Below, piece by piece: positions 1-31,986 of a stretch of DNA of 43,622 bases. Both the position numbers and the translations under genes were made by a program. This stretch comes from an uncultured Oscillospiraceae bacterium (GTDB taxonomy: Bacteria > Bacillota > Clostridia > Christensenellales > CAG-138). The stretch's first letter is position 1. Every line of letters begins with the position of its first letter. A model generated the notes under the pieces. It was not told the DNA's origin, ran no database searches, and was given only the letters and a program-made list of their open reading frames with translations. Location: positions 1 through 43,622 of the forward strand of contig CAYMSL010000002.1 in the NCBI GenBank assembly GCA_964393095.1, written 5' to 3'.

Positions 1-789
1 CGCAAGACTTCCGCTTGGGCTTGGCGTGGCGGTTGGCTTTGGAGTCGGCGTGGCGGCCGCGGAGGTGATCCGAACGAAGCTCGCAAATACATAGCCGGTC
101 TTGTTTGTGCCCTTGGTTGTCACCTTATACCAGTTGCCGTTCTTTTCAAGTATGGTCAGCGCCGTACCCTTTTTGAGCGTACCCTGGCTTTTGTAGCTCG
201 TTCCCGGGCCGGTGCGGAAGTTGACGCCGCTTGTAATGATTTCGCCGGCCGCCAAGGCGTAGCCGCTCGCCGGGTCCACCTTTGAGACGATCTTGATATA
301 CAGCGGCGAGATGTAGCCCTCCTTGCCGGTCGCGTGTACTTTTACCCTGTACCAGCCGGTTTTCGCGTCGGCGGAGTAGAGCGTCAGCCCTGCGTTGGCG
401 GATACGACCGCAAGGCGTTCGCTCTGCTTCGTGGCTTCCTTGCGCAAATTGACGCTGGAGGTGGTTACGCCAAGCGCGTAGGCCGCGAGACTTGCGCCGT
501 TGACGCTGATGTATTTCCCGCTCACATAGCCGCTTTTGCCCGTTGAAGGCACATCGATGCGCAGCCAGGCGCCGGATATCTCGTAGATGTTGACGGCGGT
601 GTTTTTTTTGAGCGTATCCACAATGGAGCTGCCCGTACCGGCGCCTTTGCGCATATTGAGCTTCGCGGCGTTGACATACCCCGTTGCAAGCGTGCTCGCG
701 GCGTGCGCCGCGCGCACGGGCAGCGCGGCCGGCAGCAGCGCAAGGCACAATAGCACCGTCATGAGCTGTAGCGTCCGTCGTTTCCGCAT
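1..789 (-). CDS. Secreted protein with tandem bacterial SH3 (SH3b) repeats; partial, 3' end lies beyond the window start
   Basis: Not in the supplied ORF track (no stop inside the window). Reverse-strand ATG at 789-787 is preceded by GGAGGA (803-798). It translates to MRKRRTLQLMTVLLCLALLPAALPVRAAHA, a signal peptide. About four SH3b-type repeats follow (GYV..a.LNmRkG.gT...v..l.k.t.v.i....g.WyrV....G..GYv...Yi). A Pro/Thr linker (TPTPKPTATPSPS) lies at the window edge. The frame is open over all 263 codons. Confidence 0.8.
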   Translation of the reverse strand, partial: MRKRRTLQLMTVLLCLALLPAALPVRAAHAASTLATGYVNAAKLNMRKGAGTGSSIVDTLKKNTAVNIYEISGAWLRIDVPSTGKSGYVSGKYISVNGASLAAYALGVTTSSVNLRKEATKQSERLAVVSANAGLTLYSADAKTGWYRVKVHATGKEGYISPLYIKIVSKVDPASGYALAAGEIITSGVNFRTGPGTSYKSQGTLKKGTALTILEKNGNWYKVTTKGTNKTGYVFASFVRITSAAATPTPKPTATPSPSGSLA

Positions 790-1085
790 GGTGTTTATCC
801 TCCTTGCGGCGTGCGCCGCATCTGGTGTAGTATGCATTCCAATATACTTATATGCTTGTCCATCGGCCAATATTTGTCGATACAAAAAGAACGAGAATTT
901 GTGCCCGTTTCGCACGCCGCGGCATACGTAAAATGTGGTGTAATCAGGCGGCGGACGGGAAACGCGGGCAGGAAGAGTCTCTTGTTACATGCGGGCCAAT
1001 CCGCGGGCGTGAGGCGCAGGCGTTACAGGCTAGCGCACTATTCTGCCTAATTATACAAGTATTGTCACAAATATGTAACTTTCAC

Positions 1086-1114
1086 TTGACAACATGGTTT
1101 CTTCGTGTTAGTTT
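1086..1114 (+). promoter_or_regulatory. Candidate sigma-70 promoter for the riboswitch/Tad transcript
   Basis: TTGACA at 1086-1091, a 17-nt spacer, then TAGTTT at 1109-1114 (keeps the TA...T core). It sits in the AT-rich part of the 790-1333 divergent intergenic region. Transcription would start about 15 nt before the aptamer. Confidence 0.35.
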
Positions 1115-1134
1115 ACATGTATATTATGGAAGTC

Positions 1135-1232
1135 TTAATCGCACAGGCAAACCCCGTGAAAGCGGGCGACGCAAAGCTACAGGGCCTAACGACGCAGCCG
1201 CGTTTATGGCAGCCAGTTGCCGAATGGGTAGA
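1135..1232 (+). promoter_or_regulatory. c-di-GMP-I (GEMM-I) riboswitch aptamer
   Basis: CGCACAGGCAAACC starts at 1140. A hairpin CCCGU-GAAA-GCGGG (1153-1166) carries a GNRA tetraloop. The conserved core ACGCAAAGC is at 1169-1177. The second hairpin carries both halves of a GAAA tetraloop receptor: CCUAAC at 1185-1190 and UAUGG at 1205-1209. The closing segment is GCCGAAUGGG at 1219-1228. Order and sequence parallel the V. cholerae Vc2 aptamer as I recall it. It lies 100 nt upstream of the tadV start. Confidence 0.8.
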
Positions 1233-1333
1233 TGACCGCTTATTTTCCTATGCGGGATTCTTTTGTTGGGCAGCTTGACAAACAAGGTGTCCTTTTGTGC
1301 ACCCGGCGAATGCTTTGAAAGGAGGTTAAACGC

Positions 1334-1954
1334 ATGGTAAAACTCTGGATCATCCTCATCGGTGCGGCCGCAGGCGCGGCGCTGATTGTTCCGGTTGAGT
1401 TCCTTTGCGCCCGCCTCCTTCGGCAGCGCGGCAGGGAGTTTAGCATGACAAAAAAACACCGCCTATGGATGCTGCTCTGCCTTACGCTCTGCGGCGCTCT
1501 GATCGGCTGGCGCGCGAGTGTTACGTGGCGGGCGCTGTATCTTTTGCTCATGCTCGGGGTCGCCGCAAGCGTGGCCTATATCGACGCGACCACGCGGTTG
1601 ATTCCAAACGAACTTGTGCTCTCCGTCATCGCGCTGGCGGCGATATTTGGGTTTAGCGGGGCCATCACGTTTCGCATCGGCTCCTCGCTGCTGGGATTTG
1701 CCGTTTGCCTCATCGTGTTTTTGCTGCCCGCGCTGTTTCGTAAAGCGGTCGGCGAAGGCGACGTCAAGCTCGCGGCGGCGATGGGATTTGCGCTCGGTCT
1801 GACCAACAGCCTTTACGCGATCGTCTGCATGGGCATACTCGTGTTCCTCTATTTCATCATAGAGCGGAAGGCGCCGCTTGTGGCGAGTTTGAAGGCGATG
1901 ATCCCGATGGGACCGTTTCTTGCGGCGGCGCTTGTGGTTGTGTCGGCGTTATGA
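1334..1954 (+). CDS. tadV: Prepilin peptidase, A24 family (TadV/CpaA-type)
   Basis: ATG 1334 follows GAAAGGAGG (1317-1325). The protein is polytopic. It carries both aspartyl-protease motifs: AYIDATTRLIPNEL and GEGDVKLAAAMGFALG (the GxGD type). Confidence 0.85.
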   Translation: MVKLWIILIGAAAGAALIVPVEFLCARLLRQRGREFSMTKKHRLWMLLCLTLCGALIGWRASVTWRALYLLLMLGVAASVAYIDATTRLIPNELVLSVIALAAIFGFSGAITFRIGSSLLGFAVCLIVFLLPALFRKAVGEGDVKLAAAMGFALGLTNSLYAIVCMGILVFLYFIIERKAPLVASLKAMIPMGPFLAAALVVVSAL

Positions 1955-2162
1955 TATGACGGGCCGCGCGCGGTGCGCGCCAGGCGCCCGGTTTGGGTTT
2001 CGATTCATAAGGGGGTGGTCGGGGGTTTTTGCGATCGGGTTTGCGGGTATGGCTGGTGTGCCCGCGTCGGACAACGTCCCGCATGGCGCGGGACATGCAG
2101 CGTCGTATACCGGGGGAGGGGTCTCCCCATCAAAAAATAAAAGCAAATGGAGGAATCTTATC

Positions 2163-2339
2163 ATGAAAAACTTCTTCAAGGGTGAAAGCGGTCAGGGCAT
2201 GGTCGAGTACGGCCTGATCATCGCGCTCGTTGCCGTCGCCGTTCTCGTCGCACTCGGCGCGCTGGGCACAAGCACCAGCGGTATCTTCGATAAGATCACG
2301 GCCAAGCTCGGCGGCGGCGAAGCCGCGCCAGTCGATTGA
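2163..2339 (+). CDS. flp: Flp-family pilin 1 (58 aa)
   Basis: Internal ATG 2163 of track ORF 1920-2339, after TGGAGGA (2147-2153). Sequence MKNFFKGESGQGMVEYGLIIALVAVAVLVALGALG... has the Flp prepilin signature: G then xxxEY followed by a hydrophobic helix. Confidence 0.9.
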   Translation: MKNFFKGESGQGMVEYGLIIALVAVAVLVALGALGTSTSGIFDKITAKLGGGEAAPVD

Positions 2340-2366
2340 TTTGTTTCGGACGCGCGGGCGGTCATC

Positions 2367-2528
2367 ATGAGACGCTTTTTAACCAACGAAAGCGGGCAGG
2401 GCTTGGTCGAGTACGGCCTGATTATTGCGCTTGTCGCCGTCATAGCGTTGGTCGGCCTCACCGCGTTTCGGGACGAAACCGGCGTTCTCTTCAGCGGCAT
2501 CGAAGCAAAGCTGCCGCCGGGATTCTAA
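2367..2528 (+). CDS. flp: Flp-family pilin 2 (53 aa)
   Basis: Too short for the ORF track. ATG 2367, TAA 2526-2528. It translates to MRRFLTNESGQGLVEYGLIIALVAVIALVGLTAFRDETGVLFSGIEAKLPPGF. The Flp motif is the same as in pilin 1, but the C-terminus diverges. Confidence 0.85.
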   Translation: MRRFLTNESGQGLVEYGLIIALVAVIALVGLTAFRDETGVLFSGIEAKLPPGF

Positions 2529-2620
2529 GCGAGCCTGCGAGCGCGCGGCCGGTTGGCACGAAGTACTTTTGCGAACAAAAGCCGCCGGAGCCGGCGTTCC
2601 TGCCGTACGGCAAAGACATC

Positions 2621-2649
2621 GGCTTGCCCTTCGGTATCGGGGGCAAGCC
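2621..2649 (+). terminator. Stem-loop between pilin genes and tadE (possible attenuator or mRNA-stabilising hairpin)
   Basis: GGCTTGCCC (2621-2629) pairs perfectly with GGGCAAGCC (2641-2649) across an 11-nt loop. Only TT follows, so it is not a canonical intrinsic terminator. Confidence 0.3.
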
Positions 2650-2695
2650 TTCAGCGAAAGCGGCAGCGAAAAGACACGTAAGGGAGGGAGCACAG

Positions 2696-3109
2696 GTGCA
2701 AAAGAGATGGACCGGGCGGCGTGAAAACGGACAGTCGGTCGTCGAGCTTGCGCTGACGCTCCCTTTTCTGCTCCTTTTGATCTGCGGCATGATCGAGATG
2801 GGCTGGCTCGCGGCCAACCGACTCGTGCTCGACAACATTACGCGCGAAGGCGTTCGCGCCGGCATCGTCGCGAGCAGCGCGGCGAGTAACACCGCCGATG
2901 TCGTCGCGCGCATCAACGACATGAAGCCGGATTATATGAGCGACGAACTGGGCATCGCGGTGACGTACTCGAACCCCTCGAACTTCCGCGACGGGGACAT
3001 CACGGTCGTCACCACCTACGACCTGCCGACGATTACGCCGCTGACCGAGTTCCTGGCCGAAGACGGCGCGTTTCATCTGCGCGCCGAGTGTACGATGAAG
3101 ATGAGCTAG
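2696..3109 (+). CDS. tadE: TadE-like pseudopilin / pilus assembly protein
   Basis: In-frame GTG 2696 after AGGGAGGGAG (2681-2690) within track ORF 2336-3109. The N-terminus (V)QKRWTGRRENGQSVVELALTLPFLLLLICGMIEMG matches the TadE/TadF N-terminal motif (G..vVEfal.lP.ll.l). Confidence 0.75.
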   Translation: MQKRWTGRRENGQSVVELALTLPFLLLLICGMIEMGWLAANRLVLDNITREGVRAGIVASSAASNTADVVARINDMKPDYMSDELGIAVTYSNPSNFRDGDITVVTTYDLPTITPLTEFLAEDGAFHLRAECTMKMS

Positions 3110-3212
3110 CCATGCGGCGGTTCGGCGGCGGTTCTACGATCGTCCGGCTCGCCGTGTTTGTGTCTTTTCGGAGGGCGGCGCGCCGGCAAACGGGCGCGGG
3201 AAGGGCATCGCG

Positions 3213-4232
3213 ATGGAAAAACGGATCTTACGGCGCTGGAAGCGGTTTGCGGCGAAGGAACGCGGCGAGTCGCTGTTTATCATCGCGTTTGCGTTGACGG
3301 CGCTTATCGGCGTAACCGCGCTCGTAACGGATTTGGGCATGGCCTACGTCAAAACGGCGCAAACGCAGACCGCTGCGGACGCGGCGGCGCTGGCCGCAGG
3401 GATGAAGCTGCCGATTAAAAGCTCCGACACGGCGGCGATCGCCCAGGCAACGGCGATTGCGCAGGACTACCTCACAAAAAACGGCGTTTCCGATCCGTCC
3501 GCCGCGGAGATTACCTTTGGCGAACTCAGCGACGGCGCCTATCACGCGATCGCCGTTTCGCAGCCCGCGGTATCCGAAACGGCATTTGCGAAGATATTCA
3601 GCATCGACGAGATCGCGTTCAGCCGGATGGCGGAGGCGCGGGTGCTGCCCTGCGGGGCGCTTTCCGACCTCGTTCCCCTCTCGATTGAGGAGAGCACGCT
3701 CGACGGGATGATCGCAAGCGGCTCAACCGAGCATGCGATCCTCAAATACGGCAAGAAGACGGATGAAGTCCAGCACGGCTCGTTTGGTGCGATCGACCTC
3801 GACGGCGTGCAGGGCGGCGGGGCGAACGACTATAAAAACTGGCTCGCCAACGGATATCAATCGAAGCTCACCATCGGCACGACGCTGCCGGTCGAATCCG
3901 GCAACATGGCCGGTCCGACCTATTCCGGCATCGTGCAGCGATACAACGCCTGCACGCATTACCCTTCGAGCGGCGGGTGCAATTTGCACCGCTATGTCGA
4001 CGACTGCCCGCGCGTGATGAAGGTGCCGGTGATCGTCTATACGACAAGCCAGCACAAGTACGTAAAAGACGTCGGGTTTGCCGCGTTTGTACTCGAGGAC
4101 TATGCGACCTATGAGAGCAAGGGCTGCGTGGTCGGCTCCTATGTCAACATGGTCAACATCGGCGCGGCGGACGCGAACCTGAGCGGCAGCGCGGAAAACT
4201 ACGGCGTATACAGCCTCGTACTAAGCAAATAG
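3213..4232 (+). CDS. tadG: TadG-like Flp pilus assembly protein
   Basis: N-terminus ...ERGESLFIIAFALTALIGVTALVTDLGMAYVKTAQTQTAADAAALAAGM matches the TadG/Tad_N signature: a TM helix, then D.g, then L/Q.aADaAALAa. A large extracytoplasmic domain follows. Confidence 0.7.
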   Translation: MEKRILRRWKRFAAKERGESLFIIAFALTALIGVTALVTDLGMAYVKTAQTQTAADAAALAAGMKLPIKSSDTAAIAQATAIAQDYLTKNGVSDPSAAEITFGELSDGAYHAIAVSQPAVSETAFAKIFSIDEIAFSRMAEARVLPCGALSDLVPLSIEESTLDGMIASGSTEHAILKYGKKTDEVQHGSFGAIDLDGVQGGGANDYKNWLANGYQSKLTIGTTLPVESGNMAGPTYSGIVQRYNACTHYPSSGGCNLHRYVDDCPRVMKVPVIVYTTSQHKYVKDVGFAAFVLEDYATYESKGCVVGSYVNMVNIGAADANLSGSAENYGVYSLVLSK

Positions 4233-4266: not shown

Positions 4267-4434
4267 CGCCCGATCGAAGCCGCGGCATATACGCTGAAGC
4301 TGCGGCGCTTGATCCGCGCAGGGCTTAAAAGAGTGAAAATTTATGCGGGTTAAGCCGCCTTTGAATATGGCTACATAGGCCCGCGGACAATTCGCAGGCG
4401 CCGCGTGCAGCCTTGTTATTCGGAGAGAAGGTTT

Positions 4435-5235
4435 ATGAAGAAGGTCGTTATCTTTGCCTTGATCGCCGCGCTCGCCGCGGGTACGATGCTCTATCTCTAT
4501 CTTGACAAGCTCGAGCAGACAAAGGAGATCCCGCTCGTCTACGAGGACGTGCTTGTCGCCGCGCGGGATATCCCGGCGTTTTCGGAGATTACGGTCGATA
4601 TGGTGGTCGTTAAGCAGGTGCTGCAGGGATCGTCGCATCCGCGCGCCGCGCGCGCGAGCGACGAGGCGGTGGGCTTTGTTACCGAGGGCCTCATCGTGGA
4701 GGGCGAGGAGATTCTCCCGGCCAAACTCAAACAGCAAGGGCAGGAGGAAAGCGGGCTTTCCTACCTTGTGCCGCAGGGCATGCGCGCGCTCACCGTCGCG
4801 GTGGATGAAATCTCCGGCGTCGCGGGATTTTTGCAGCGCGGGGACTATGTGGATGTGATCGCCTACACCACGACGAGCTATTCGCTCGAGGATGCGGCGC
4901 AGCCGGAGGGCGCGGGCGGGGACGCGGCGCAGCCGGAGGGCGCGGCCGAGAACGCGGCAGCGCGGGCGACGCAAAGCACGAGCGTCGTTGCCGCCCAAAA
5001 CGTCCGCGTGGCGGCGGTCGGCAGGACGCTTCAGCGCGCCGCAGCAGGCAGTGGCGGGGCGTCGGGAGAGGTCTACGGCAGCGTTACGCTCTTTCTCACG
5101 CCTACGGATGTCATGCGCGTGCTTCAGGCCGCAAAGGGCGGCATCATCACGATCGTTCTGCGCGCGTCGGGCGACCACGCGCCGCTTGTCGAAGAGCCTG
5201 TTGTAAACGATACGCTGCTCGATCGCGCCGAATGA
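4435..5235 (+). CDS. cpaB: CpaB/RcpC-family Flp pilus assembly protein (N-terminal TM anchor, SAF domain, RcpC domain)
   Basis: ATG 4435 after GGAGAGAAGG (4422-4431). Sequence MKKVVIFALIAALAAGTMLYLYL forms the membrane anchor. VLVAARDIPAFSEIT is SAF-like. GMRALTVAVDEISGVAGFLQRGDYVDVIAY is RcpC/CpaB-like. Confidence 0.8.
   Translation: MKKVVIFALIAALAAGTMLYLYLDKLEQTKEIPLVYEDVLVAARDIPAFSEITVDMVVVKQVLQGSSHPRAARASDEAVGFVTEGLIVEGEEILPAKLKQQGQEESGLSYLVPQGMRALTVAVDEISGVAGFLQRGDYVDVIAYTTTSYSLEDAAQPEGAGGDAAQPEGAAENAAARATQSTSVVAAQNVRVAAVGRTLQRAAAGSGGASGEVYGSVTLFLTPTDVMRVLQAAKGGIITIVLRASGDHAPLVEEPVVNDTLLDRAE
4891..4950 (+). repeat. In-frame 30-bp tandem duplication inside cpaB
   Basis: gatgcggcgcagccggagggcgcgggcggg is followed by gacgcggcgcagccggagggcgcggccgag (27/30 identical). 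They encode DAAQPEGAGG and DAAQPEGAAE in a low-complexity linker. Confidence 0.9.
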
Positions 5236-5245
5236 GGAGAAGAGG

Positions 5246-6373
5246 ATGGACAGCGTAAGGATCATGCTGGCGGCGTTTTCCGCCGAGGATAGAAAGGCGG
5301 CGGCGGCGCTGTTGCAGGACGAATCCCTGCGCATCGTCTGCACACTCCGCCCGGATAAGGACGGACTCAGGAAGGCGGGCACGCAGCCGGCGGATGTATT
5401 GCTGCTCTGCACGCGCGGCGCACCGGAGGCGGAGTTCGACTTTGCCGAGCGTATGTACACAAGCCGCAGCGACATCACGACGCTGCTGCTGATGCAGCGC
5501 CCCAGGATGAGCGATATCGAGCGGGCGATGAGCAGCGGCATCGCGCGCGTGCTCGATATCGCAAGCGGCGTCGACGCAATCAAGTCCGAGATCGTTCTTG
5601 CCGCGAGGCGCGACCAGCACCGGCGCAGCAGCATGACGAAGGTGGCGAGCTACGACGCGCGCGTCATCGCGTTTTTTTCGCCGAAAGGCGGCGTGGGCAA
5701 GACGACGCTCGCGGTCAACACCGCCTGCGCGCTGGCGGCATTGAATAAAAAAGTCGCGCTCGTCGACCTGAATTTGCAATTTGGCGACGTGGGCGTCTTT
5801 CTTGATGTTCCGAAGGGCGATACCATTGCGGACATGGTCGAGGAGCAGACTTTTGAGCTTGCCACGGTAAAGAGCTACCTCATACAGCACCAAAGCGGCG
5901 TGATGGTGCTGCTTTCGAGCAGTTCGCCGGAGTACGCCGAACTGATCCGCCCCGAGCACATCGAGGCGATTCTTTCGGTGCTGCGGCCGGAGTTTGACTA
6001 TGTTGTTGTGGATCTCGGTACGGCGCTTTCGGACTGCGCCGTCTCGGCCCTCGAGCTTGCGGACACGATCTACCTTGTGGTGAACGAGGATATCGCGGCC
6101 CTGCACGGCACCAAGCGCAGCATGAAGGTGCTCGAGGCGCTCAACCTCGGCGACAAGATCAAGATCGTGGTCAACAAGGACGGCGGTTCGAGCATCCGGG
6201 TCAAGGACGTTGCGAATCTTCTTGAGAGCGCGCCCGTGCTGAGCGTCCCGAACGATCCAAAAGCCGCGATTCACGCGATCAACCGCGGCATTGCCCTCGT
6301 GGAATGCGTGCCGCGCTCAAAGGTGTCCGCCGCGATACGCATGTTCGCCAAGTCTTTGATCAGGGGGGTATAG
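5246..6373 (+). CDS. tadZ: TadZ/CpaE-type pilus localisation ATPase (atypical receiver domain + ParA/MinD-like ATPase)
   Basis: Deviant Walker A FFSPKGGVGKTTLAVNTA. The N-terminal ~125 aa are receiver-like, but the phospho-acceptor position reads VLLLCTRG (Cys instead of Asp). This is typical of the TadZ pseudo-receiver. Confidence 0.8.
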   Translation: MDSVRIMLAAFSAEDRKAAAALLQDESLRIVCTLRPDKDGLRKAGTQPADVLLLCTRGAPEAEFDFAERMYTSRSDITTLLLMQRPRMSDIERAMSSGIARVLDIASGVDAIKSEIVLAARRDQHRRSSMTKVASYDARVIAFFSPKGGVGKTTLAVNTACALAALNKKVALVDLNLQFGDVGVFLDVPKGDTIADMVEEQTFELATVKSYLIQHQSGVMVLLSSSSPEYAELIRPEHIEAILSVLRPEFDYVVVDLGTALSDCAVSALELADTIYLVVNEDIAALHGTKRSMKVLEALNLGDKIKIVVNKDGGSSIRVKDVANLLESAPVLSVPNDPKAAIHAINRGIALVECVPRSKVSAAIRMFAKSLIRGV

Positions 6374-6376: not shown

Positions 6377-7687
6377 GTGGGACTGCTCGAACGGCTGGAT
6401 AAGAAAAGCCCGTCGGCGTCCGCCGCTACGGCGCCGTCGTCCAAGACGGACGAATCGTACCTGCTGCGCGATCGCGTACAGCTGCAGGTCATCGAAACGA
6501 TCAACAAGCGCGAGGAAAAGCAGGGCGGCAACACAAACGAAACGGAGACGCGCTCCATCATCGAATCCACGCTTGAAGAGCAGGCCGCGAACATGGCGCG
6601 GCCGGAGCGCACACGGCTTGCCGGGGAGATATTCGATTCGATTCGCGGTCTCGGCCCGCTCGAAAAACTGCTTGCCGACGATACGATCACCGAGATCATG
6701 GTCAACGGCGCAAAGCAGGTATTCATCGAACGCCAGGGCAAGCTTGTGCTCACCGACGTGACGTTTTTTGACGACGACCAGCTGCTTAACGTCATCGATC
6801 GCATCGTTTCCCCGCTGGGCAGGCACGTCGACGAGGCGATGCCGATGGTCGACGCGCGTTTGCTTGACGGCTCGCGCGTGAACGCGCTGATCCCGCCGCT
6901 CTCGCTCAAGGGGCCGCTGCTCACGATCCGAAAATTTTCCCGTAATCCGCTGACCATGGAAAACCTTGTCGGCTTTGGCAGCCTGACGATCAAGATGGCG
7001 ACATTCCTCGAAGCCTGCGTAAAGGGCCGGCTCAACATTGTGATCTCAGGCGGGACCGGCAGCGGCAAAACCACGCTGCTCAACGCGCTGTCGGCGTATA
7101 TTCCGCATGGCGAGCGCATCATCACGATCGAGGACGCGGCGGAGATCCAACTGCAGCAAAGGCACGTTTTGACGCTGGAGGCGCGCCCCGCAAACCTCGA
7201 GGGAACCGGACAGATCTCCATACGCGACCTCGTGCGCAACGCGCTGCGCATGCGGCCCGACCGGATCGTCGTCGGCGAGGTGCGCGGCGGCGAGGCGCTG
7301 GACATGTTGCAGGCCATGAACACCGGCCACGACGGCTCCATGACGACCGGCCATGCCAATTCCACGCGCGATATGCTCGCGCGGCTTGAAACCATGGTGC
7401 TCATGGCGGGGATGAACCTGCCGATTCCCGCGATCCGGCAGCAGGTCGCCTCGGCGATCGATCTGATCGTGCAGCAGTCGCGTCTGCGCGACGGCAGCCG
7501 CAAGGTCACGAGCATCAGCGAGGTGGTCGGCATGGAGGGCGACGTCATCGTTACCCAGGAGATCTTTACCTACGACTACGGCGACGGCCGCTCGCCCGGG
7601 CGCTTTCGCGCGACGGGCATCAAGCCGCACTGCTGCGATAAGCTCGCGGCAAGCGGCGCGGGCGTCAAGGAAGAATGGTTTTCCTGA
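6377..7687 (+). CDS. tadA: TadA/CpaF secretion ATPase
   Basis: GTG start after AGGGGGG. Walker A ISGGTGSGKTTLLNAL. VirB11/GspE-type Asp and His boxes (RPDRIVVGEVRGGEA, GHDGSMTTGHAN). Confidence 0.9.
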   Translation: MGLLERLDKKSPSASAATAPSSKTDESYLLRDRVQLQVIETINKREEKQGGNTNETETRSIIESTLEEQAANMARPERTRLAGEIFDSIRGLGPLEKLLADDTITEIMVNGAKQVFIERQGKLVLTDVTFFDDDQLLNVIDRIVSPLGRHVDEAMPMVDARLLDGSRVNALIPPLSLKGPLLTIRKFSRNPLTMENLVGFGSLTIKMATFLEACVKGRLNIVISGGTGSGKTTLLNALSAYIPHGERIITIEDAAEIQLQQRHVLTLEARPANLEGTGQISIRDLVRNALRMRPDRIVVGEVRGGEALDMLQAMNTGHDGSMTTGHANSTRDMLARLETMVLMAGMNLPIPAIRQQVASAIDLIVQQSRLRDGSRKVTSISEVVGMEGDVIVTQEIFTYDYGDGRSPGRFRATGIKPHCCDKLAASGAGVKEEWFS

Positions 7688-7743: not shown

Positions 7744-8673
7744 ATGTTGAAACTGGTTGTCGTATCGGTAAGCGGCGTCGCGGCGTTTTTTTTCTTTTAC
7801 CTGCTGGCGTTGATCAACACACGCAAAAGCCGCGCCATGGAGCAGCGCCTTAAGACGCTCTTTGGCAGCGGGCTCGAGAGCGCACGCGCCCGCCGGATCA
7901 AGAGCGAAAAGGAGCGCGTCCGCCTCCGCTGGCTCGATCAACTGGCGGACGAGCTTTACGTTGCCGGCATCGCGCTGCGCGCCGAGGAATTCATCGCCAT
8001 CTGGTTCATCGTTGGGGCGGCGATTCCGGCGGTGGCGCTGTTTCTCGGCGTTCCGCTGAGCTTTGCCATCGGCATGGCGATCGTTGGCGCCGCCGCGCCG
8101 ATCGGGTTTGTAACGATCAAACGAAACCGCAGGCTTACGCTGCTTGGCAAGCAGCTTTCAGATGCGCTGAACATCATCTGCGGTGCGCTGCGCGCCGGAC
8201 TCTCCTTCCAAACCGCTATGAAGAACGTCGCCGACGAAATGGAAGAGCCGATCTCGCGCGAATTCATGCGCGTCTACCGGGAAACGCAGCTCGGCATGCC
8301 GCTTGAGGCGAGCCTGAACCGGCTTGTGCAGCGCACGCACAATCAGGATTTGGATCTCGTGTGCTCCGCCGTTGTCATTCAGCGCCAAATCGGCGGCAAT
8401 CCCGCGATGATCCTCGAGAACATCTCCGACACGATCAACCAGCGCATTCAGCTGCGCGGCGAGATCAAAACCCTGACGTCCGCGGGTACGCTCAGCGGCT
8501 ATATCGTCGGCGGGCTGCCCGTCTTCATCATCGTGCTTTTGATGTTTATCAATCCCGATTATGTGGACATGTTTTTCACCACCGAAACGGGACGGATCAT
8601 GCTCATCGTCTCCGTTGTGCTGGAAGCGGTCGGTTTTACCATCGTACGCAGAATCGTCAACATCAAGATGTAG
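7744..8673 (+). CDS. tadB: TadB (T2SS-F family inner-membrane platform protein)
   Basis: AAGGAGGTG lies 10 nt upstream. N-terminal TM helix, then a cytoplasmic T2SSF domain (LSDALNIICGALRAGLSFQTAM), then C-terminal TM helices. Confidence 0.8.
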   Translation: MLKLVVVSVSGVAAFFFFYLLALINTRKSRAMEQRLKTLFGSGLESARARRIKSEKERVRLRWLDQLADELYVAGIALRAEEFIAIWFIVGAAIPAVALFLGVPLSFAIGMAIVGAAAPIGFVTIKRNRRLTLLGKQLSDALNIICGALRAGLSFQTAMKNVADEMEEPISREFMRVYRETQLGMPLEASLNRLVQRTHNQDLDLVCSAVVIQRQIGGNPAMILENISDTINQRIQLRGEIKTLTSAGTLSGYIVGGLPVFIIVLLMFINPDYVDMFFTTETGRIMLIVSVVLEAVGFTIVRRIVNIKM

Positions 8674-8685: not shown

Positions 8686-9612
8686 TTGCGGTACGTCGTA
8701 TTGGCCTGCACCATCGCAATATTCCTTGTTTTGATCGCGCTGCTCAGCGGCCTCGGCCGCAGGGGCGACGCGATGCTCCGCCGTTTTGCGCTGGTAAAGG
8801 ACGCCGAACGCTCCTATGGCGACGAGGAGCTGAAAAAGTCCTTTACGGAGCGTGTGTTCCGCCCGACCGTGAGGCGTATCACGGAGCGGGTCAAGCGGCT
8901 CGCCGGCAAGGGCAAAGCGCCGGGCGCGAGCAAGGCCAACCAAAAGCTCGACAGGCAGCTCAAAAGCGCGGGAATCGGCCTAACCGTACAGGAGTATACG
9001 TTCGTCAAGAGCCTGCTTTCACTCGTGTTTCTGCTTGGCGGCGTAGCGCTCTATCTGCTGCTGCCGATCGAGCAGATATACCGCCTGCTCATCGTGCTCG
9101 TGCTGCTTTGCATCCCCGTCTATGGCTCGAATTTCTTTCTGCGGGCGAAGGTCAAGGCGAGGCAGGAGGCCATCGTGCGCGACCTGCCGGATGTAATGGA
9201 CTTGCTTGTTGTAAGCGTGGAAGCCGGGCTAGGACTTGACGCGGCGATCGTGCGCCAGTATGCGAAGAACAAAAGCCCGGTGCTCAGCGAGCTCAACGGC
9301 GCGATCCGCGAGGTGCAGATGGGCGTTTTGCGCAAAAACGCGTTCAAGGAAATGGCCGACCGCTGCGATGTGAAGCAGCTTTCCGCGTTTGTAACGGCCT
9401 TCCTGCAGGCCGATCAGCTCGGCGTCTCGCTCAAGAGCGTGCTAAAGACGCAATCCGAACGCCTGCGCGTGGAGCGCAAGCAGCTTATTCAGGCCAAGGC
9501 GGCCAAGGCGCCGATCAAGATCATGCTGCCGACGGTGTTCTTTATCTTTCCCGTGATATTCATTATTTTGCTCGGCCCCGCCGCCGTCAGCCTGATCGCG
9601 GCGTTTCAATAG
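8686..9612 (+). CDS. tadC: TadC (T2SS-F family inner-membrane platform protein)
   Basis: TTG start 13 nt after the tadB stop. T2SSF-type domain (LPDVMDLLVVSVEAGLGLDAAI) and a terminal TM pair. It is the paralogous partner of tadB. Confidence 0.8.
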   Translation: MRYVVLACTIAIFLVLIALLSGLGRRGDAMLRRFALVKDAERSYGDEELKKSFTERVFRPTVRRITERVKRLAGKGKAPGASKANQKLDRQLKSAGIGLTVQEYTFVKSLLSLVFLLGGVALYLLLPIEQIYRLLIVLVLLCIPVYGSNFFLRAKVKARQEAIVRDLPDVMDLLVVSVEAGLGLDAAIVRQYAKNKSPVLSELNGAIREVQMGVLRKNAFKEMADRCDVKQLSAFVTAFLQADQLGVSLKSVLKTQSERLRVERKQLIQAKAAKAPIKIMLPTVFFIFPVIFIILLGPAAVSLIAAFQ

Positions 9613-9695: not shown

Positions 9696-10040
9696 ATGAA
9701 GGTGATTCCGATCAAACGAAACGGCGATACGATTGCGCATGTTTGGGATGCAAACAGCTATTTTACGCGCCTGCGCGGCCTGCTTGGGCGCGCGCTTCCC
9801 CGGGGCGGCGGGCTGATTTTGACGCCCTGCAACAGCATTCATACCTTTGGCATGCGGTATGCGATCGACGCGGTCTACCTCGATTGTAACGGCGTCGTGC
9901 TGCGCGTTGACGTCGATCTGCCGCGCGGCAGGGCCTGGCGGCCCCAGCGCGGGGCAAGAAGCGTTCTTGAGCTGGCGGCGGGAGAGGCGGCAGCGTATAA
10001 CATCCGTGCGGGCGATCGATTGGAGGTATGCCATGGTTAG
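9696..10040 (+). CDS. DUF192 (COG1430) domain protein
   Basis: AAGGAG (9684-9689) precedes ATG 9696. The motif block RLRGLLGR....GGLILTPCNSIHTFGMRYAIDAVYLDCNGVVLRV is typical of DUF192. Confidence 0.7.
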   Translation: MKVIPIKRNGDTIAHVWDANSYFTRLRGLLGRALPRGGGLILTPCNSIHTFGMRYAIDAVYLDCNGVVLRVDVDLPRGRAWRPQRGARSVLELAAGEAAAYNIRAGDRLEVCHG

Positions 10041-10955: not shown

Positions 10956-11226
10956 ATCGGCAGCCTCGCGGGGGTGGGTTCCTGACGCTACGGCGGATAC
11001 GGGACACGGGACAACGATCGCCTGTTCCATCAAAGAGCTGTTTTTTAACGAACCGGCGGGGCATGCTTTTGGGCAGGCCTCGCTTTTTTGCACGAAGTAA
11101 TGGGCGGATACAAGGCGGCAAGAAACGTTGCAGGATACCCGTTTGCGCGAAGGTTGCCGTATGGATGGAAACAATGCAGTAAATACTCGAATGGAAAGTA
11201 TTACGATGGAAATGAAAAAAACCATA

Positions 11227-11235
11227 TGGTATCAT
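11227..11235 (+). promoter_or_regulatory. Candidate extended -10 promoter element (TGgTATCAT) upstream of the EPS operon
   Basis: TGG-TATCAT lies in an AT-rich island (11160-11260). No convincing -35 was found. It would leave a leader of about 230 nt before ATG 11466. Confidence 0.25.
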
Positions 11236-11465
11236 GGACGCGAAAAACTGCAATGGATGGTAGGTGTACCTGCAAAACGGGCGAGGGGGCAGCTGTCGGT
11301 ACGAAATTCGGCCATGGTACGGCGCGGCCTCGGGCGAGACAAACGGTGTGCGTAAGACGGTCGAAAATTGGAATATGCGCGCGGTACGGGCAGAGTAGGG
11401 TTGCTTTCAATGGGGCAGCCGTATCTGACGGATTGGACGTGCAGGATAAAAAGCTGGTGGAGCGG

Positions 11466-14400
11466 ATGGCGCGGGAGGCCAAGCGGATTCTCATGATCAT
11501 GTTCGGCGCCGCTATGGCGCTGATTGCCGCGTGCGCGCCGCCCCAAAAGCGCGAGGCGCAAATCACGGCGTCACCGATTCCGCAGGTTACGGCGGCGCCG
11601 ACGGCGTATGTCTGGGAACCGAACGAATCCGCCCACGCGCTCGACGGTTACGGAATCATCAACGCCGCGTCCTATACCGGCTATCGATACGTTACGCGCG
11701 AGATCGCGGCGCGCCTGATCGCCGATATCACGGGTCTCGGTGCGGAGGCAAAGGCGGGGGAAGCGCATCCGTTCGTCGACGTTACGGGCGGCGCGGAGGC
11801 GCCGATCGCCCTATTGTATCGCCTTGATATCGTCGAGGGGCTGTCAAGCAACCGCTTCGGCGGGGACGAGCTCTGCGATCGCGAGACGTTCCTGCTTTAT
11901 TTATTAAGGGCGCTCGAGGTCGCAGGCGGCGCGCCGGCGACGCTCATGCAGGACGGCGTCGCGGCGGCTGCGGCGGAGCGGGGACTGACGGCGGATGCGG
12001 CGGCCGGTGACGAAATGCTCTCTATCGACCAGGCGTTCGACATCTGCTATAACGCGCTGTTCGTCCATATCGGAGACGGCACCCAGACGCTGCTTACGCA
12101 TTTGTATGCCCGGGGAATTTCCAACACGTCGGGCTGCGACATCGGCGAGGCCTATCGGATCGAGGGTGTCGAGGCGGCGCCGTTCTGGCGGGAAACGTTC
12201 GACGGCAAGACGCTCTTCGACGGCAACGTCGTCAATGCGGACAACAGGATTGATTGGTACGGCAGCAATACCCAAGGCGCGGAGAACCGGATTACCCGGG
12301 AAGGCCGCCTCGAACTTTCGGGTAACGATCAGTATCTTGTGGACAACCAGTGGATCGCGCTGCGAAAGGGGATTTTGCAGGGGCGCGAGAGCTTTGGCAT
12401 GAGTTTTACGCTCAACGTGCAGAACATGGCAAACGAGGGGAACGAGGCGCGCGCCGTGTTCCGCGTGATCCCGCGCACGGCCGACGCGAGGTTTACGAGG
12501 TATTACGCGGTCAATTATTATATGACGCTGCCGCTCGGGCCTTATCAATCGAACCTCGCGCGCTGCAAGTGGTCGATTACAAACACGAACGCGCCGAGCG
12601 GCACAAAACCGCTTGCCGAGGCGTATTTCCTGCTTGAAGAGGGCGTGGATTACGCCGCGCGCCTGCTGATTGAAAACACCGACGACGGCGTGCGCCTTTC
12701 GTTCTACATCGATGGGCCGGATCATGACGGCGCGGCAGGCCCGCTGCTTACATATACGGATAACTCGGAATATCGCATTTTGCAAAACGCCGCCGGCCCC
12801 GCCTTCGGCAGTTCGGGCTACCTTACCGCCGGCTGGGGCTACGCTTCTACGGTGCATGTTGACGACGTTGCGCTCTACGACCCTCTAGAGTTCGCCGCCG
12901 AAACGGCGCAGCTTGCCGCGTACGTAAACACGCCGCTCGTGCTAAACGGCGATGCGGCCGATGCGAGCCAAATGAGATATCTGGTGCGCCGCGGCGTGCT
13001 CCGGCCGTGCGGGCGCAATCTGGACTTTGAGGGCACCGTCGAGGTCGGGCAGCTTCTGGCCTCCGCACGCTATTTTGCCGGCGAGCATCTCTCTGCGGGA
13101 GAAACGCTTGCGGCGTTTACCGGAGCAATGCACCGCACGTTGTTTGGCGGCGCGGCGGAGGCGGATCTTACGCGTGACGTGACGCGTTATGAGGCGGCGC
13201 AGGTTGCCCTGCGCCTTCTGCCCGGCGAGCCGGCGACGGGCGACTACCGCGCTTTGTATGGGGACGCGCTGAACGAAACCTACCGAAGCGCCGTCTATTT
13301 CGCCGTGCAGAACAGCTACCTTCTGCTCGACGAAAACAACCGCTTTCGCGGCGACGAGCCGCTGACGCGCCGGGAGCTGCTGCATTTCTTTGCCTGCGCC
13401 GCGGACGCGCGGCTTCGGACGCTCAACCGCGCGCTGCAACTGCCCGCAATCCTCTCCGACAACGCCGTTTTGCAGGCCGACAAGCCAATTCCCATCAGCG
13501 GCAGGGGCATGAGCGGGGATACCGTGACCGTGACGTTTCACAAGCAGACCAAAAGGGCGAAGGTCGTCGACGGCCGTTGGTCGGTCGAGCTTGAAAGCGA
13601 ACCGTACGGCGGGCCGTACCGCCTCAGCGTCAGGGATTCTGGGCATAAGCTCTCGTTCGGCGGCATCTACGTCGGCGAGGTGATCGTCGTCGCCGGGCAG
13701 TCGAACGCGGAGATGTCCGTCTACGAGTCCGCAAACAACGCCGATACGCTCAGGCGGTTCAACAACCAGACGCGGGTAAGGCTGTTTCGCCCGGAGAGCC
13801 GCATGGCGGTTACGCCTCTAGCGGATACAAAGACGCGCTGGCAGGTCGCGGGGGACCCGTACAGCGAATATATTCTCGGATCGGCAAGCGCCATCGGCGT
13901 ATTCTGCGTGCAGGAACTGTTTGCGCTCAAGCCGGCGCTGAAAAACGTGCGTATCGGCATCATCCAGATCACCTACGGCGGCACGAGCATCGAGATGTTT
14001 CTGCCGTCCTCCGTAACGCAAACGCCGCGTTCCGACGACGAGGTGCTCGTTTCCGGCTTTTGGAACGGCTTCATGGCGGGGCTTACCCCCTACGCCGCGC
14101 GGGCGCTCGTCTACTATCAGGGCGAAAACAGCGCGCATTTGGGCTATCGTTACGAGCCGCTGCTCAACGACTACATCCGCGGCGTGCGCGATGCGTTTTA
14201 TGACGCGGCCTTGCCCGTACTGCTCGTGCAGCTTTCCGGATACGGCGACAACTACGCGCAGGACAACGACCTTTGGCCCGAGATACGCGAGGTGCAGATG
14301 CGTGTGGCGAACACGACGGAAAACGTCGGACTCGTAACCGCGATCGACCTCTCCGATCGAAACCCGCAGGAGATTCACCCTGTGCGTAAGCGGCCCGTCG

Positions 14401-15188
14401 GAAAACGGCTTGCATGCCTTGCGATGAAACTCGCCTATAGCGAGGATATCGGCGGGCTATCCGCACGGCTGACAAACGCGGTACTAAACGGCAAGACCTA
14501 CAGCTTAAGCTTCAGCGCGGCGGCGTTGACGCTCCGTGACGACGCGTACGGCGACGTGGCCTTTGAGGTGCTCGATTCGCAGGGCAGGTGGGTAGCGGCG
14601 CAGGCGCGCGTGGAGCGGGATACGCTATTGGTCTGGAGCGAACATGTGGATTTGCCGCGGGGCGTGCGCTACGCCTGGGCAAACTACCCGAAGGCCTGCC
14701 TCTTTGACGGGGCCGGATTGCCGGTGCTGCCGTTCAACACGACGAAGGACCTCGATACGCCGGTGGACGCGAAGCTGTTTACAACGAACGAACGACAGCT
14801 CAAGAAGGCGTATCACCTGCTCGAAACGGGCGATCTCGTCGTCAACCTTTCAAGGAATAACGCGGCGCGGCGCGTGCGGTTTGTCGACGCCTATGTCGTG
14901 GAATACAGCGACGGCGGCATCGCGGGCCAGTCGAGCGGGGACCGCGTGGCGCTGCTCGAAAAGCGCGGCGAGTGCGCGGGCGGAGGCGGTACCACAAGCG
15001 AGGTCGTCAGCCTTATGGGACACGGCTTAAAGGCGGGCGATTGGCTGCTCAACACAAAGCGGGAGGCGCTCACCGAGGTGATCGAGGTGCTCGATGGCGA
15101 TACGCTGCGGGTGCGTCCCGTTATGGGGCAGGGGGAGGGCGACATCTTTGAGCTTTATGAATGCAGGCGAATCATCACGGCGGAGTAA
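11466..15188 (+). CDS. Giant lipoprotein with SLH-like repeats, a beta-rich central region and a SASA-type (sialate O-acetylesterase-like) carbohydrate esterase domain
   Basis: I place the start at ATG 11466 (GGTGGAG lies 5 nt upstream), not at the track start 11088. This gives MAREAKRILMIMFGAAMALIAAC, a lipoprotein signal with lipobox IAAC. SLH-like segments are HPFVDVTGGAEAPIALLYRLDIVEGLSSNRFGGDELCDRETFLLYLLRAL and YFAVQNSYLLLDENNRFRGDEPLTRRELLHFF. The esterase motif is GEVIVVAGQSNAEMS, with a later GENSA. Confidence 0.7.
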   Translation: MAREAKRILMIMFGAAMALIAACAPPQKREAQITASPIPQVTAAPTAYVWEPNESAHALDGYGIINAASYTGYRYVTREIAARLIADITGLGAEAKAGEAHPFVDVTGGAEAPIALLYRLDIVEGLSSNRFGGDELCDRETFLLYLLRALEVAGGAPATLMQDGVAAAAAERGLTADAAAGDEMLSIDQAFDICYNALFVHIGDGTQTLLTHLYARGISNTSGCDIGEAYRIEGVEAAPFWRETFDGKTLFDGNVVNADNRIDWYGSNTQGAENRITREGRLELSGNDQYLVDNQWIALRKGILQGRESFGMSFTLNVQNMANEGNEARAVFRVIPRTADARFTRYYAVNYYMTLPLGPYQSNLARCKWSITNTNAPSGTKPLAEAYFLLEEGVDYAARLLIENTDDGVRLSFYIDGPDHDGAAGPLLTYTDNSEYRILQNAAGPAFGSSGYLTAGWGYASTVHVDDVALYDPLEFAAETAQLAAYVNTPLVLNGDAADASQMRYLVRRGVLRPCGRNLDFEGTVEVGQLLASARYFAGEHLSAGETLAAFTGAMHRTLFGGAAEADLTRDVTRYEAAQVALRLLPGEPATGDYRALYGDALNETYRSAVYFAVQNSYLLLDENNRFRGDEPLTRRELLHFFACAADARLRTLNRALQLPAILSDNAVLQADKPIPISGRGMSGDTVTVTFHKQTKRAKVVDGRWSVELESEPYGGPYRLSVRDSGHKLSFGGIYVGEVIVVAGQSNAEMSVYESANNADTLRRFNNQTRVRLFRPESRMAVTPLADTKTRWQVAGDPYSEYILGSASAIGVFCVQELFALKPALKNVRIGIIQITYGGTSIEMFLPSSVTQTPRSDDEVLVSGFWNGFMAGLTPYAARALVYYQGENSAHLGYRYEPLLNDYIRGVRDAFYDAALPVLLVQLSGYGDNYAQDNDLWPEIREVQMRVANTTENVGLVTAIDLSDRNPQEIHPVRKRPVGKRLACLAMKLAYSEDIGGLSARLTNAVLNGKTYSLSFSAAALTLRDDAYGDVAFEVLDSQGRWVAAQARVERDTLLVWSEHVDLPRGVRYAWANYPKACLFDGAGLPVLPFNTTKDLDTPVDAKLFTTNERQLKKAYHLLETGDLVVNLSRNNAARRVRFVDAYVVEYSDGGIAGQSSGDRVALLEKRGECAGGGGTTSEVVSLMGHGLKAGDWLLNTKREALTEVIEVLDGDTLRVRPVMGQGEGDIFELYECRRIITAE

Positions 15189-18157: not shown

Positions 18158-19402
18158 ATGCTGGTTGATCCGCTCGGGCTGATCTCGCTCATCTGCATCT
18201 GGTTTTTGCTCATGGTCAACCAGATTCTCGTGGTTGCGGGCTATATCTACTATATGCATGAGGAAAAAGCCGCGCCGAAGCAGCTTACGCGCCACCCGTA
18301 TTTGAGCGTTCTCGTGCCTGCGCACAACGAGGAAAAGGTGATCGTGCGCACCGTCGAATCGCTGCTTGCTTTCGACTACCCGCCCGATCGCTATGAGATC
18401 ATCGTCATCAACGACAACTCGTCCGATGGGAGCCGCGAACTGCTCGAAGGCGTTCAAGCGGCGCACCCGCAGCGCGCGCTGCACATCATCCATACGGACG
18501 CCGTGACGGGCGGCAGGGGCAAGTCCAACGCGCTCAACATCGGTTTTCGCGCCGCACTCGGCAGCTATGTGGCGGTGTACGACGCGGACAACACGCCCGA
18601 GGCGGACGCGCTAAGCCGCCTTGTGGCCGAGATCGAAAGCGACCCCACGCTCGGGGCCGTGATCGGCAAATTCCGCACGCGCAACCGAAACGTCAACCTG
18701 CTCACGCGCTTTATCAACATCGAGACGCTCTCGTTCCAGTGGATGGCGCAGGCGGGCAGATGGCAGCTCCTGGAACTCTGCACGATACCCGGCACAAACT
18801 TTCTCATACGCCGCTCAATCCTCGACGCAATCGGCGGCTGGGACGTGTGCGCGATGGCGGAGGACACCGAGCTGAGCTTTCGCATCTACGCGATGGGCTA
18901 CAAGATCAAGCTCGTGCCGCGCGCCGTGACCTGGGAGCAGGAGCCGCAGACGCTTAAGGTCTGGTTTCAGCAGCGGGTGCGCTGGGTCAAGGGCAACCTC
19001 TATGTGCTCTTCAAGAACTTCCCCCTGCTTTTTCGTAAAAAGGCGCAGCGCATCAAGTTTGACCTATTGTACTTTATGTCGATCTACTTTTTGCTGCTCG
19101 GGGCGCTCGTGACCTCCGACGCGCTGTTTTTACTCAACGCGCTCGGATTGATTCGTCTGACGCTCGTGAGCCTGAGTATATTCCTCTGGCTTATGGCGAT
19201 CTTCCTCTTCGTCATCAGCGTGTTTGTTACGCTGACGACCGAAAAGGGGGAGATGCGCCTGTCAAACCTGTTTATCACCGTGCTCATGTACTTTACGTAC
19301 TGCAAACTATGGATGGTGGTAGCCGCCTACGGGCTTGGGCGGTATCTTTTGGACGCACTGTTTAGGAAGGAATTTCACTGGTACAAGACGGAACGCTTCT
19401 AG
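18158..19402 (+). CDS. Processive family-2 glycosyltransferase (polysaccharide synthase, YdaM/PgaC/BcsA-like catalytic core without a PilZ domain)
   Basis: AAGGGGGAG RBS. One N-terminal TM segment. Motifs VPAHNEE, INDNSSDGS, YDADN (DxD), PGTN, AEDTEL and QQRVRW (QxxRW). About four C-terminal TM helices follow. The protein ends right after the membrane domain. Confidence 0.85.
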   Translation: MLVDPLGLISLICIWFLLMVNQILVVAGYIYYMHEEKAAPKQLTRHPYLSVLVPAHNEEKVIVRTVESLLAFDYPPDRYEIIVINDNSSDGSRELLEGVQAAHPQRALHIIHTDAVTGGRGKSNALNIGFRAALGSYVAVYDADNTPEADALSRLVAEIESDPTLGAVIGKFRTRNRNVNLLTRFINIETLSFQWMAQAGRWQLLELCTIPGTNFLIRRSILDAIGGWDVCAMAEDTELSFRIYAMGYKIKLVPRAVTWEQEPQTLKVWFQQRVRWVKGNLYVLFKNFPLLFRKKAQRIKFDLLYFMSIYFLLLGALVTSDALFLLNALGLIRLTLVSLSIFLWLMAIFLFVISVFVTLTTEKGEMRLSNLFITVLMYFTYCKLWMVVAAYGLGRYLLDALFRKEFHWYKTERF

Positions 19403-19420
19403 GCGAAAAGGAGAGACGAT

Positions 19421-30121: not shown

Positions 30122-30370
30122 ACAAACCTCTTTTACAGATGTCCGTTGTCTGGTAAGCACTCATGTGCAGTATAACACGCAAAGAGGACAAACGGAACGC
30201 TTTCCTGTGCGGCGGCCTGTTAAACGCACGCGAAGATAACAGGATACGGCGCGCGGGAAAGCGCGCTCCGGCGGCGCGGCAAAGGCCCGCGGCGTTATCG
30301 ACGACCTGTGAAATACATTTATTCTTGAATCGTGCGATATTTCGCGTATAATCTCCTTGAGGAGCGTGAC

Positions 30371-31975: not shown

Positions 31976-31986
31976 GGCAGGTTGGA

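Follow-up and report, generated by a model that had tools for sequence, protein, structure and literature searches.

A c-di-GMP-I riboswitch in the leader of a Christensenellales Tad/Flp pilus operon, with predicted OFF control by transcription termination

The present analysis concerns the 5' leader that precedes a Tad/Flp pilus locus in an uncultured bacterium of the Christensenellales; it lies in a 43,622-nucleotide (nt) stretch of contig CAYMSL010000002.1, hereafter the window, a term used for the whole stretch of DNA that was analysed. The first gene of the locus, tadV, starts at 1334 and is preceded by an aptamer of the class I cyclic di-guanosine monophosphate (c-di-GMP) family (c-di-GMP-I, or GEMM-I) and by a downstream platform which is homologous to that found in related genomes, where a small hairpin and an intrinsic terminator follow the aptamer in this order. 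That a real c-di-GMP-I riboswitch controls the tad leader is close to certain; the fuller statement, namely that the leader (1121-1333) works by transcription termination in the manner of Cd1 of Clostridioides difficile and turns the tad/flp operon OFF at high c-di-GMP, is in our judgement probable. The elements of the leader are listed below.

1086..1114, plus strand: putative promoter, read from the sequence, with -35 TTGACA (1086-1091), a 17-nt spacer and extended -10 TGtTAGTTT (1106-1114)
1128..1143, plus strand: tentative 5' side of the P1 closing helix, assigned by comparison with the ACUC/GAGU pairing of relatives
1136..1224, plus strand: c-di-GMP-I (GEMM-I) aptamer, RF01051 covariance match over the full model
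1146, plus strand: G1146, equivalent of Vc2 G20, which recognises one ligand guanine; unpaired G before the first helix, Rfam alignment column 11
1147..1172, plus strand: P2 hairpin, with GAAA tetraloop 1158-1161 and stem 1153-1157/1162-1166 (Rfam structure line)
1169-1177, plus strand: core ACGCAAAGC, read in the sequence
1173, plus strand: A1173, equivalent of Vc2 A47, a ligand contact; it follows GACGC in the Rfam alignment
1175..1218, plus strand: P3 hairpin, with the receptor halves CCUAAC (1185-1190) and UAUGG (1205-1209) (Rfam structure)
1212..1233, plus strand: switching strand, made of the P3 3' strand, C1220 and the P1 3' strand (minimum free energy (MFE) folds; family pair count 99.5%)
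1219-1228, plus strand: closing segment GCCGAAUGGG, read in the sequence
1236..1255, plus strand: hairpin 1, CCGC 1236-1239/GCGG 1252-1255, apex of the predicted antiterminator (folding, family conservation, platform model)
1258..1279, plus strand: antiterminator 3' strand, overlapping the 5' arm of the terminator (MFE folds, family pairing)
1268..1299, plus strand: predicted intrinsic terminator, with stem 1268-1277/1283-1292, loop ACAAA and tail UUUUGUG 1293-1299 (folding and homology to the terminators of relatives)
1317..1336, plus strand: Shine-Dalgarno GAAAGGAGG (1317-1325) and tadV ATG (1334-1336); the open reading frame aligns with 207-residue homologues from residue 1

Over the whole window the Rfam cmscan search returns a single match, RF01051 at 1136-1224 (+), with a score of 69.9 bits against a gathering threshold of 35, an E value of 8e-12 and coverage of model positions 1-87 of 87; a rescan of 700-3400 with permissive filters gave no further Rfam match beyond this aptamer. 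An earlier sequence-only reading of the same DNA had proposed a class I c-di-GMP aptamer from a series of features within 1135-1333 and had asked that it be checked against the RF01051 gathering threshold: all of the features are present, and the score is twice that threshold. The same reading had placed the ribosome-binding site at 1317-1325, where GAAAGGAGG is indeed found ahead of the ATG at 1334. The two hairpins are well preserved among 20 relatives, the pairs of P2 being kept in 99-100% of cases, with compensatory changes, and the helices of P3 being paired in 100%, with both sides changed in 4/4 pairs of the distal stem; the P3 3' strand of the window aptamer is one nucleotide short of the Rfam consensus. 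From the tetraloop and the two receptor halves, the adjacent hairpins would be joined by a GNRA tetraloop/tetraloop-receptor contact.

In Vc2 the nucleotides G20, A47 and C92 contact c-di-GMP (PMC5888326; PMC4744006). By the Rfam alignment, the third of these has its equivalent in C1220, within the 3' GCC, beside G1146 and A1173 for the first two, while the interhelical C44-G83 pair corresponds to C1170 and G1212; the spacing of 27 nt between G1146 and A1173 is the same as that between G20 and A47 of Vc2 and between G12 and A39 of Vc1. In the GEMM-I variants that sense cyclic AMP-GMP (c-AMP-GMP; GEMM-Ib), an A replaces G at the Vc2 G20 position (PMC9481103); the window has G1146 there and, since it carries G and not A at this position, c-di-GMP is the expected ligand, and the aptamer probably binds it. 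That it should sense another cyclic dinucleotide, such as c-AMP-GMP, seems to us hardly credible: such variants are known, they differ mainly at this one pocket nucleotide and A variants do occur in the tadV leaders of relatives, but the window itself has both G1146 and the C92 equivalent.

The window sequence is reproduced by Logan contigs from wastewater metagenomes with zero differences over 1000-1182 and over 1213-1487, and no identical Logan contig was found across 1183-1212; the join inside the aptamer therefore rests on consistent pairing and on class features on both sides. The contigs break within the conserved aptamer core, as is expected of a repeated motif.

Folding of the leader on its own is uninformative (the MFE of 1136-1345 has z = -0.44 against shuffles, with the aptamer misfolded), and the platform is revealed only by comparison with relatives. 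Homologues of TadV were found in metagenome-assembled genomes of Christensenellaceae/Christensenellales, with a best identity of 64%, and 38 tadV loci were taken from species-representative genomes; the exact TadV protein of the window was not found in the contig index. An RF01051 aptamer lies upstream of tadV in 36/38 of these Christensenellales loci, which makes riboswitch regulation of tad a conserved feature within the group. The leaders fall into two classes. Class A, which is the tadV-proximal one in relatives, has a long P1 (GGUUCUUC/GAAGAAC), AGCACA or GGCACA instead of GGCAAAC, a middle hairpin and a GCGGUUC...GAACCGCUUUUUU terminator, and both its P1 and its terminator are present in the MFE without ligand; class B has the canonical GGCAAAC...GACGCAAAGC core and a CCGC/GCGG hairpin, followed by the GGCAGCUUGGC...GCCAAGCUGCUUUUUU terminator. 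Aptamer and leader of the window are of class B. The closest TadV relative (P0002, 64% identity) gives no direct support for the window platform, because its leader is of class A.

Twelve class B leaders came from tadV loci and eight from a metagenome pattern scan, which was too loose, a real aptamer standing beside the pattern in just 8 of the returned loci. A covariance model of the platform was built from the platforms of 19 relatives, with neither aptamer nor window sequence in it; its best match in the window is at 1224-1298, with 24.3 bits, a rough E value of ~0.003 and model positions 1-85 of 85, compared with 8.1 bits for the runner-up, and it aligns hairpin 1 (1236-1239/1252-1255), the arms of the terminator and the U-tract. 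On this sequence comparison, the window platform is homologous to that of class B, with its order of aptamer, small hairpin and intrinsic terminator. The sequence-only reading had left both the platform and its ON/OFF logic open; the former can now be assigned by homology, while the OFF logic is a prediction. The weak AU-rich hairpin which it had drawn at 1258-1290 has to be replaced: the relevant hairpin is GGGCAGCUUG-ACAAA-CAAGGUGUCC at 1268-1292, with a G1273 x G1287 mismatch and an energy of -11.3 to -12.5 kcal/mol, followed by UUUUGUG. Terminator energies in the family range from -11.4 to -18.5 kcal/mol, and the stem is paired in 96% of cells over 20 sequences.

The switching strand (1212-1233) has two mutually exclusive uses, since it pairs either within the aptamer or with 1258-1279 to form an antiterminator; in the latter, 1269-1279 pairs with 1212-1221 (the basal strand of P3, C1220 and C1221) and 1258-1267 with 1222-1233, around hairpin 1 (-6.1 kcal/mol; 82.5% of family cells paired in a rough alignment). 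The antiterminator core is paired in 99.5% of cells among 20 family members, and the MFE of the isolated segment forms it in 20/20 sequences, at -22 to -31 kcal/mol; for the window, segment 1212-1279 has -23.9 kcal/mol versus -16.1 +/- 2.9 for shuffles (z = -2.7). The unconstrained transcript 1121-1300 is bistable, with mean pair probabilities of 0.46 for the terminator and 0.52 for the antiterminator, while enforcing P2 and P3 of the aptamer takes these to 0.995 and 0.001, respectively. In the model, 3.6 kcal/mol separates the full ensemble from the higher-lying aptamer-competent one, and ligand binding could plausibly make up this difference.

These pairings suggest the following course of events. 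The aptamer (1136-1224) would be transcribed first; with c-di-GMP bound, it would retain its own 3' strand (1212-1233), leaving the terminator 5' arm (1268-1277) free to pair with 1283-1292, and the resulting hairpin, together with UUUUGUG, would halt RNA polymerase ~35 nt before the tadV start, with the operon OFF. Without ligand, the aptamer 3' strand would pair with 1258-1279 around hairpin 1 (1236-1255), and the antiterminator so formed would consume the terminator 5' arm, allowing read-through into tadV, flp and the assembly genes, with the operon ON. In Cd1 of C. difficile, aptamer and terminator can form together, each in competition with an antiterminator, and the switch is OFF by experiment (PMC9262584); all the class I switches of C. 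difficile act OFF (PMC11477304). It is from this strand order and this behaviour that c-di-GMP-dependent termination before tadV is predicted; the sequence data establish the aptamer family, the homology of the platform and the two exclusive pairings with their conservation, while ligand binding, actual termination and hence the sign of regulation are inferred.

The opposite sign, whereby c-di-GMP would induce the Tad pilus by preventing the 1268-1292 hairpin or by freeing the ribosome-binding site through another pairing, has to be weighed against the same structures. It would agree with the usual role of c-di-GMP in promoting adhesion and pili, the type IV pili of C. difficile being indeed induced via a class II ON switch (PMC11477304); class I ON switches do exist, for example of the pilM type and Bc2, and the window terminator is imperfect. 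However, in the pilM ON switch aptamer and terminator are mutually exclusive (PMC9262584), the ON switches of the class building the terminator from an aptamer strand, whereas here the terminator (1268-1292) lies wholly outside the aptamer (1136-1224), so that both can coexist; moreover, the terminator is present in 99.5% of structures once the aptamer is enforced, and the conserved alternative partner of the aptamer 3' strand is the terminator 5' arm, with no U-tract after it. An ON switch is thus unlikely.

The prediction of OFF control by termination nevertheless meets several points that count against it. The window terminator is the most degenerate of the family, with the sole G x G stem mismatch in 20 sequences and just four consecutive U, whereas relatives have clean stems with 5-6 U; the antiterminator core has 7-9 pairs versus 10-11 in relatives and carries the only core mismatch of the family. 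Furthermore, 8/20 family sequences were gathered by a DNA pattern which fixes both antiterminator strands, so that the independent support for this element is that of the 12 tadV-derived leaders and the window, and most pairs are invariant, which makes the covariation support weak. The modelled ligand-free state is already 46% terminator, and the switch could therefore be leaky; P1 is not placeable with confidence; the spacer between tadV and flp may hold a second promoter, which would limit riboswitch control to tadV; a search for RNA-seq runs holding the locus found none; and repression of an adhesive pilus by c-di-GMP is contrary to common expectation. The imperfect terminator, the RNA-seq search without a hit and a sign contrary to the adhesion that c-di-GMP usually promotes all recommend caution as to the OFF logic.

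Some of these defects could also mean that the leader is a decaying, leaky remnant, damaged in terminator and antiterminator after a rearrangement had brought it directly before tadV, and giving near-constitutive expression from the leader promoter. Besides the two mismatches found nowhere else in the family and the short U-tract, this would fit the shortest leader seen (110 nt from aptamer to ATG vs 150-280 nt in the tadV leaders of relatives) and the different riboswitch class of the closest TadV relative, at 64% identity. We nonetheless regard it as decidedly unlikely: the aptamer, at 69.9 bits, has kept all of its key nucleotides, the energy of the terminator falls within that of the family, tails of four U occur in three relatives as well, and the modelled ensemble remains bistable and continues to respond to aptamer formation.

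Control at the level of translation, alone or in addition, may likewise be considered, because CCUUUU (1291-1296), which spans the terminator 3' arm and tail, could pair with the Shine-Dalgarno GAAAGG (1317-1322) when the antiterminator forms; the complementarity extends over 6 nt, and 1286-1330 alone shows the pairing at -8.4 kcal/mol. In full-leader ensembles, though, the Shine-Dalgarno GGAGG is held in a local hairpin (1312-1316/1322-1326), and the unpaired probability of 1322-1325 is 0.01-0.09 whether the fold is unconstrained, P2+P3-enforced or antiterminator-enforced (that of 1324-1325 rises to 0.24-0.5 when the tentative P1 is also enforced). Translational control is not favoured, since the accessibility of the Shine-Dalgarno is low and alike across the switch states as long as P1 is left unenforced; relatives have 55-67 nt between the terminator and the next start with no such pairing, and the ability of a U-tract to pair with a purine-rich Shine-Dalgarno is trivial. 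All in all, it is very unlikely.

For P1, the candidate registers are GUCU 1132-1135/AGAU 1230-1233 and CUU 1134-1136/GGG 1226-1228; a hand-drawn register was discarded, being paired in only 44% of family cells and costing ~11 kcal/mol when enforced. As a separate observation, GCACA (1141-1145), in the 5' flank of the aptamer, is complementary to UGUGC (1296-1300), directly after the U-tract of the terminator; this long-range pairing is present in every full-leader MFE and may be due to chance.

Because the neighbouring upstream gene is divergent, the leader would have its own promoter. Class B relatives carry a TGTGATAnTT-type extended -10 at the position that matches TGtTAGTTT in the window, and the transcription start is predicted near 1121; a consensus promoter/terminator scan listed neither the 1086-1114 promoter nor the 1268-1299 terminator. 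The divergent neighbour encodes an SH3-like repeat protein (1-786, minus strand, start near 786), and an open reading frame at 146-748 (minus strand) is its Arg-rich shadow in another frame. In the relatives L005-L033, a conserved motif, cacCTTGATAGCtGTATATaaGTGCGATTCTTC, is found ~35-10 nt upstream of the tadV-proximal aptamer, directly 5' of class A; its spacing is unfit for sigma-70, and an operator or a promoter read by an alternative sigma factor are candidates for its role.

The distribution of the two classes in relatives bears on how the arrangement in the window came about. Seven Christensenellales loci have two complete GEMM-I riboswitches of different subclasses in tandem before tadV, each unit with its own terminator; their extents in the respective loci are given below.

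L016, 2357-2849: tandem class B and class A riboswitches
L018, 2525-2847: the same arrangement
L023/L024, 2354-2848: the same arrangement
L007, 1980-2836: the same arrangement
L035, 1921-2793: the same arrangement
L036, 2296-2849: the same arrangement

In 12/12 loci with an upstream class B unit, the class A aptamer has A at the G20 position; three more A-type class A loci have no class B in the available upstream sequence, and in 21 loci class A has G at this position, with no class B unit within the ~2.6 kb fetched upstream (L017 is counted as G after correction of the pattern call by eye). A class B unit followed by an A20-type class A unit before tadV could constitute a two-ligand logic gate on the Tad pilus. 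In five tadV loci, class B stands ahead of a conserved secreted protein of ~125 amino acids, followed by NTase, HD and HEPN genes, class A and tadV. In the window, the class B riboswitch is single and is fused to tadV, within 35 nt of its start; the simplest explanation would be that a deletion or recombination took out class A together with the genes in between. The deletion junction could not be placed, as the window resembles the tadV leaders of its relatives but little outside ~25 nt around the Shine-Dalgarno.

As for the small secreted protein itself (MSRKILSILISVML...YIDGQYVLIDPLRVIPL; e.g. L002 410-787), it is the commonest gene after class B and recurs in L003, L034, L037, L038, L057, L122, L160 and L161; in L002 and L044 it is followed by NTP_transf_2, HD_5 and HEPN genes. 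It has no Pfam match, and no homologue was found in the window.

That the aptamer belongs to the 5' leader of tadV in a Tad/Flp locus, as had been read from the sequence, is supported by Pfam matches to Peptidase_A24 and Flp_Fap and by the tad genes that follow.

1334..1954, plus strand: tadV/cpaA prepilin peptidase, first gene (Pfam Peptidase_A24, 5e-14)
2164..2528, plus strand: flp pilin genes 2164-2339 and 2367-2528, with the G/(M,L)VEYGLII motif in both (Pfam Flp_Fap, translations)
2690..3109, plus strand, start approximate: TadE-like (Pfam TadE)
3213-4232, plus strand: TadG-like (Pfam Tad)
4405-5235, plus strand: CpaB/RcpC (Pfam RcpC)
5246-6373, plus strand: TadZ/CpaE-like ATPase (Pfam AAA_31/ParA-like)
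6377-7687, plus strand: TadA/CpaF (Pfam T2SSE)
7744-8673, plus strand: TadB (Pfam T2SSF)
8686-9612, plus strand: TadC (Pfam T2SSF)
9696-10040, plus strand: DUF192 (Pfam)

By its domain content, the locus has the gene set of a Tad/Flp (type IVc) pilus. The spacer between tadV and the first flp gene (1955-2163, 209 nt) is G+C-rich and contains a long hairpin at ~1961-1989, followed by GUUUGGGUUUCGAUU; a scan found no sigma-70-like promoter in it, and its fold is no better than shuffles. It could be an attenuator or contain an internal pilin promoter.

The window as a whole is a cell-surface island, which includes the divergent SH3-like repeat protein and has 11088-16861 and 28568-39513 among its regions; genes for a 1366-residue SLH/SASA protein, a WsfD-type glycan transferase, GtrII, CotH and Bac_transf also belong to it. 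At 18158-23977 there is an exopolysaccharide module, composed of a GT2 synthase (PgaC/IcaA-like), a BcsB-like protein, a membrane protein with a degenerate GGDEF domain and a GH26/CBM35 hydrolase. The membrane protein, whose true start is at 21592, adjoins the GT2 synthase and the BcsB-like protein; its RxxD site (RAED) is intact and precedes the degenerate DGDEI by five residues. In sequence, the module resembles synthases activated by c-di-GMP I-site receptors. A second c-di-GMP input at 21592, to which the sequence-only reading had also pointed, is therefore plausible.

Taken together, c-di-GMP might repress the Tad pilus via the OFF riboswitch while activating the exopolysaccharide synthase via the I-site receptor (21592-22437), both in the same 43-kb surface island, and so order attachment, with pili at low and matrix at high c-di-GMP; the arrangement would have arisen from a deletion which fused the riboswitch of the small secreted protein to tadV and removed the A20-type GEMM-I riboswitch of the closest relatives. 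This joint reading is a tentative one, to which we give somewhat less than even credence.

For an uncultured Christensenellales bacterium from wastewater, the analysis yields a concrete prediction that can be tested, namely that termination at 1293-1299 rises with c-di-GMP. If the OFF logic is true, c-di-GMP shuts down an adhesive pilus, the opposite of the usual picture, and the locus would also illustrate how related lineages can put one operon under different GEMM-I modules. Otherwise, this is an ordinary textbook GEMM-I riboswitch, and its gene context has been on record since 2007; what is added here is the platform assignment and the OFF prediction.

Among known systems, Cd1, in the flgB leader of C. 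difficile, has the same aptamer class, is transcriptional and belongs to a Clostridia host; it also shares the strand order (aptamer 5', aptamer 3', switching, terminator) and an antiterminator made from the aptamer 3' strand. The differences are that Cd1 controls flagellar genes, with OFF behaviour established by experiment, whereas the window element would act on a Tad pilus operon, with a predicted logic; that the platform sequences are unrelated; and that the window has a conserved small hairpin at the antiterminator apex. With Vc2 of Vibrio cholerae the window shares the GNRA tetraloop and its receptor, the ligand contacts and the equivalents of the interhelical C-G pair; Vc2 belongs to another phylum and precedes another gene, and P1 of the window is longer, its register being tentative. 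GEMM elements upstream of cpaA and other pilus genes were already listed in 2007 (Weinberg et al., Table 2; PMC1950547), and cpaA, the Flp prepilin peptidase, is of the same family as the first gene of the window; unlike the present case, these examples are listed without organism, platform or logic. Among the papers available to a literature search, none brought together Christensenellaceae, c-di-GMP and riboswitch, nor did any combine GEMM, riboswitch, tad and pili.

The class II switch of C. difficile pilA1 and the GEMM-Ib switch of Geobacter pilM, which senses cyclic GMP-AMP (c-GAMP), are, like the window element, cyclic-dinucleotide riboswitches that govern pilus genes through transcription termination. 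In contrast to it, both are ON switches and serve type IVa-like rather than Tad/Flp pili; in addition, the pilA1 switch has a different aptamer class and the pilM switch a different ligand. Finally, tandem c-di-GMP-I riboswitches have been reported as 347 doublets and as the Bc3-5 triplet of Bacillus thuringiensis. The seven related loci described above are comparable with these, as the class present in the window lies there upstream of a second GEMM-I unit before tadV; unlike the reported tandems, the window has a single riboswitch, and the two units of its relatives are of different subclasses, the second with A at the G20 position.

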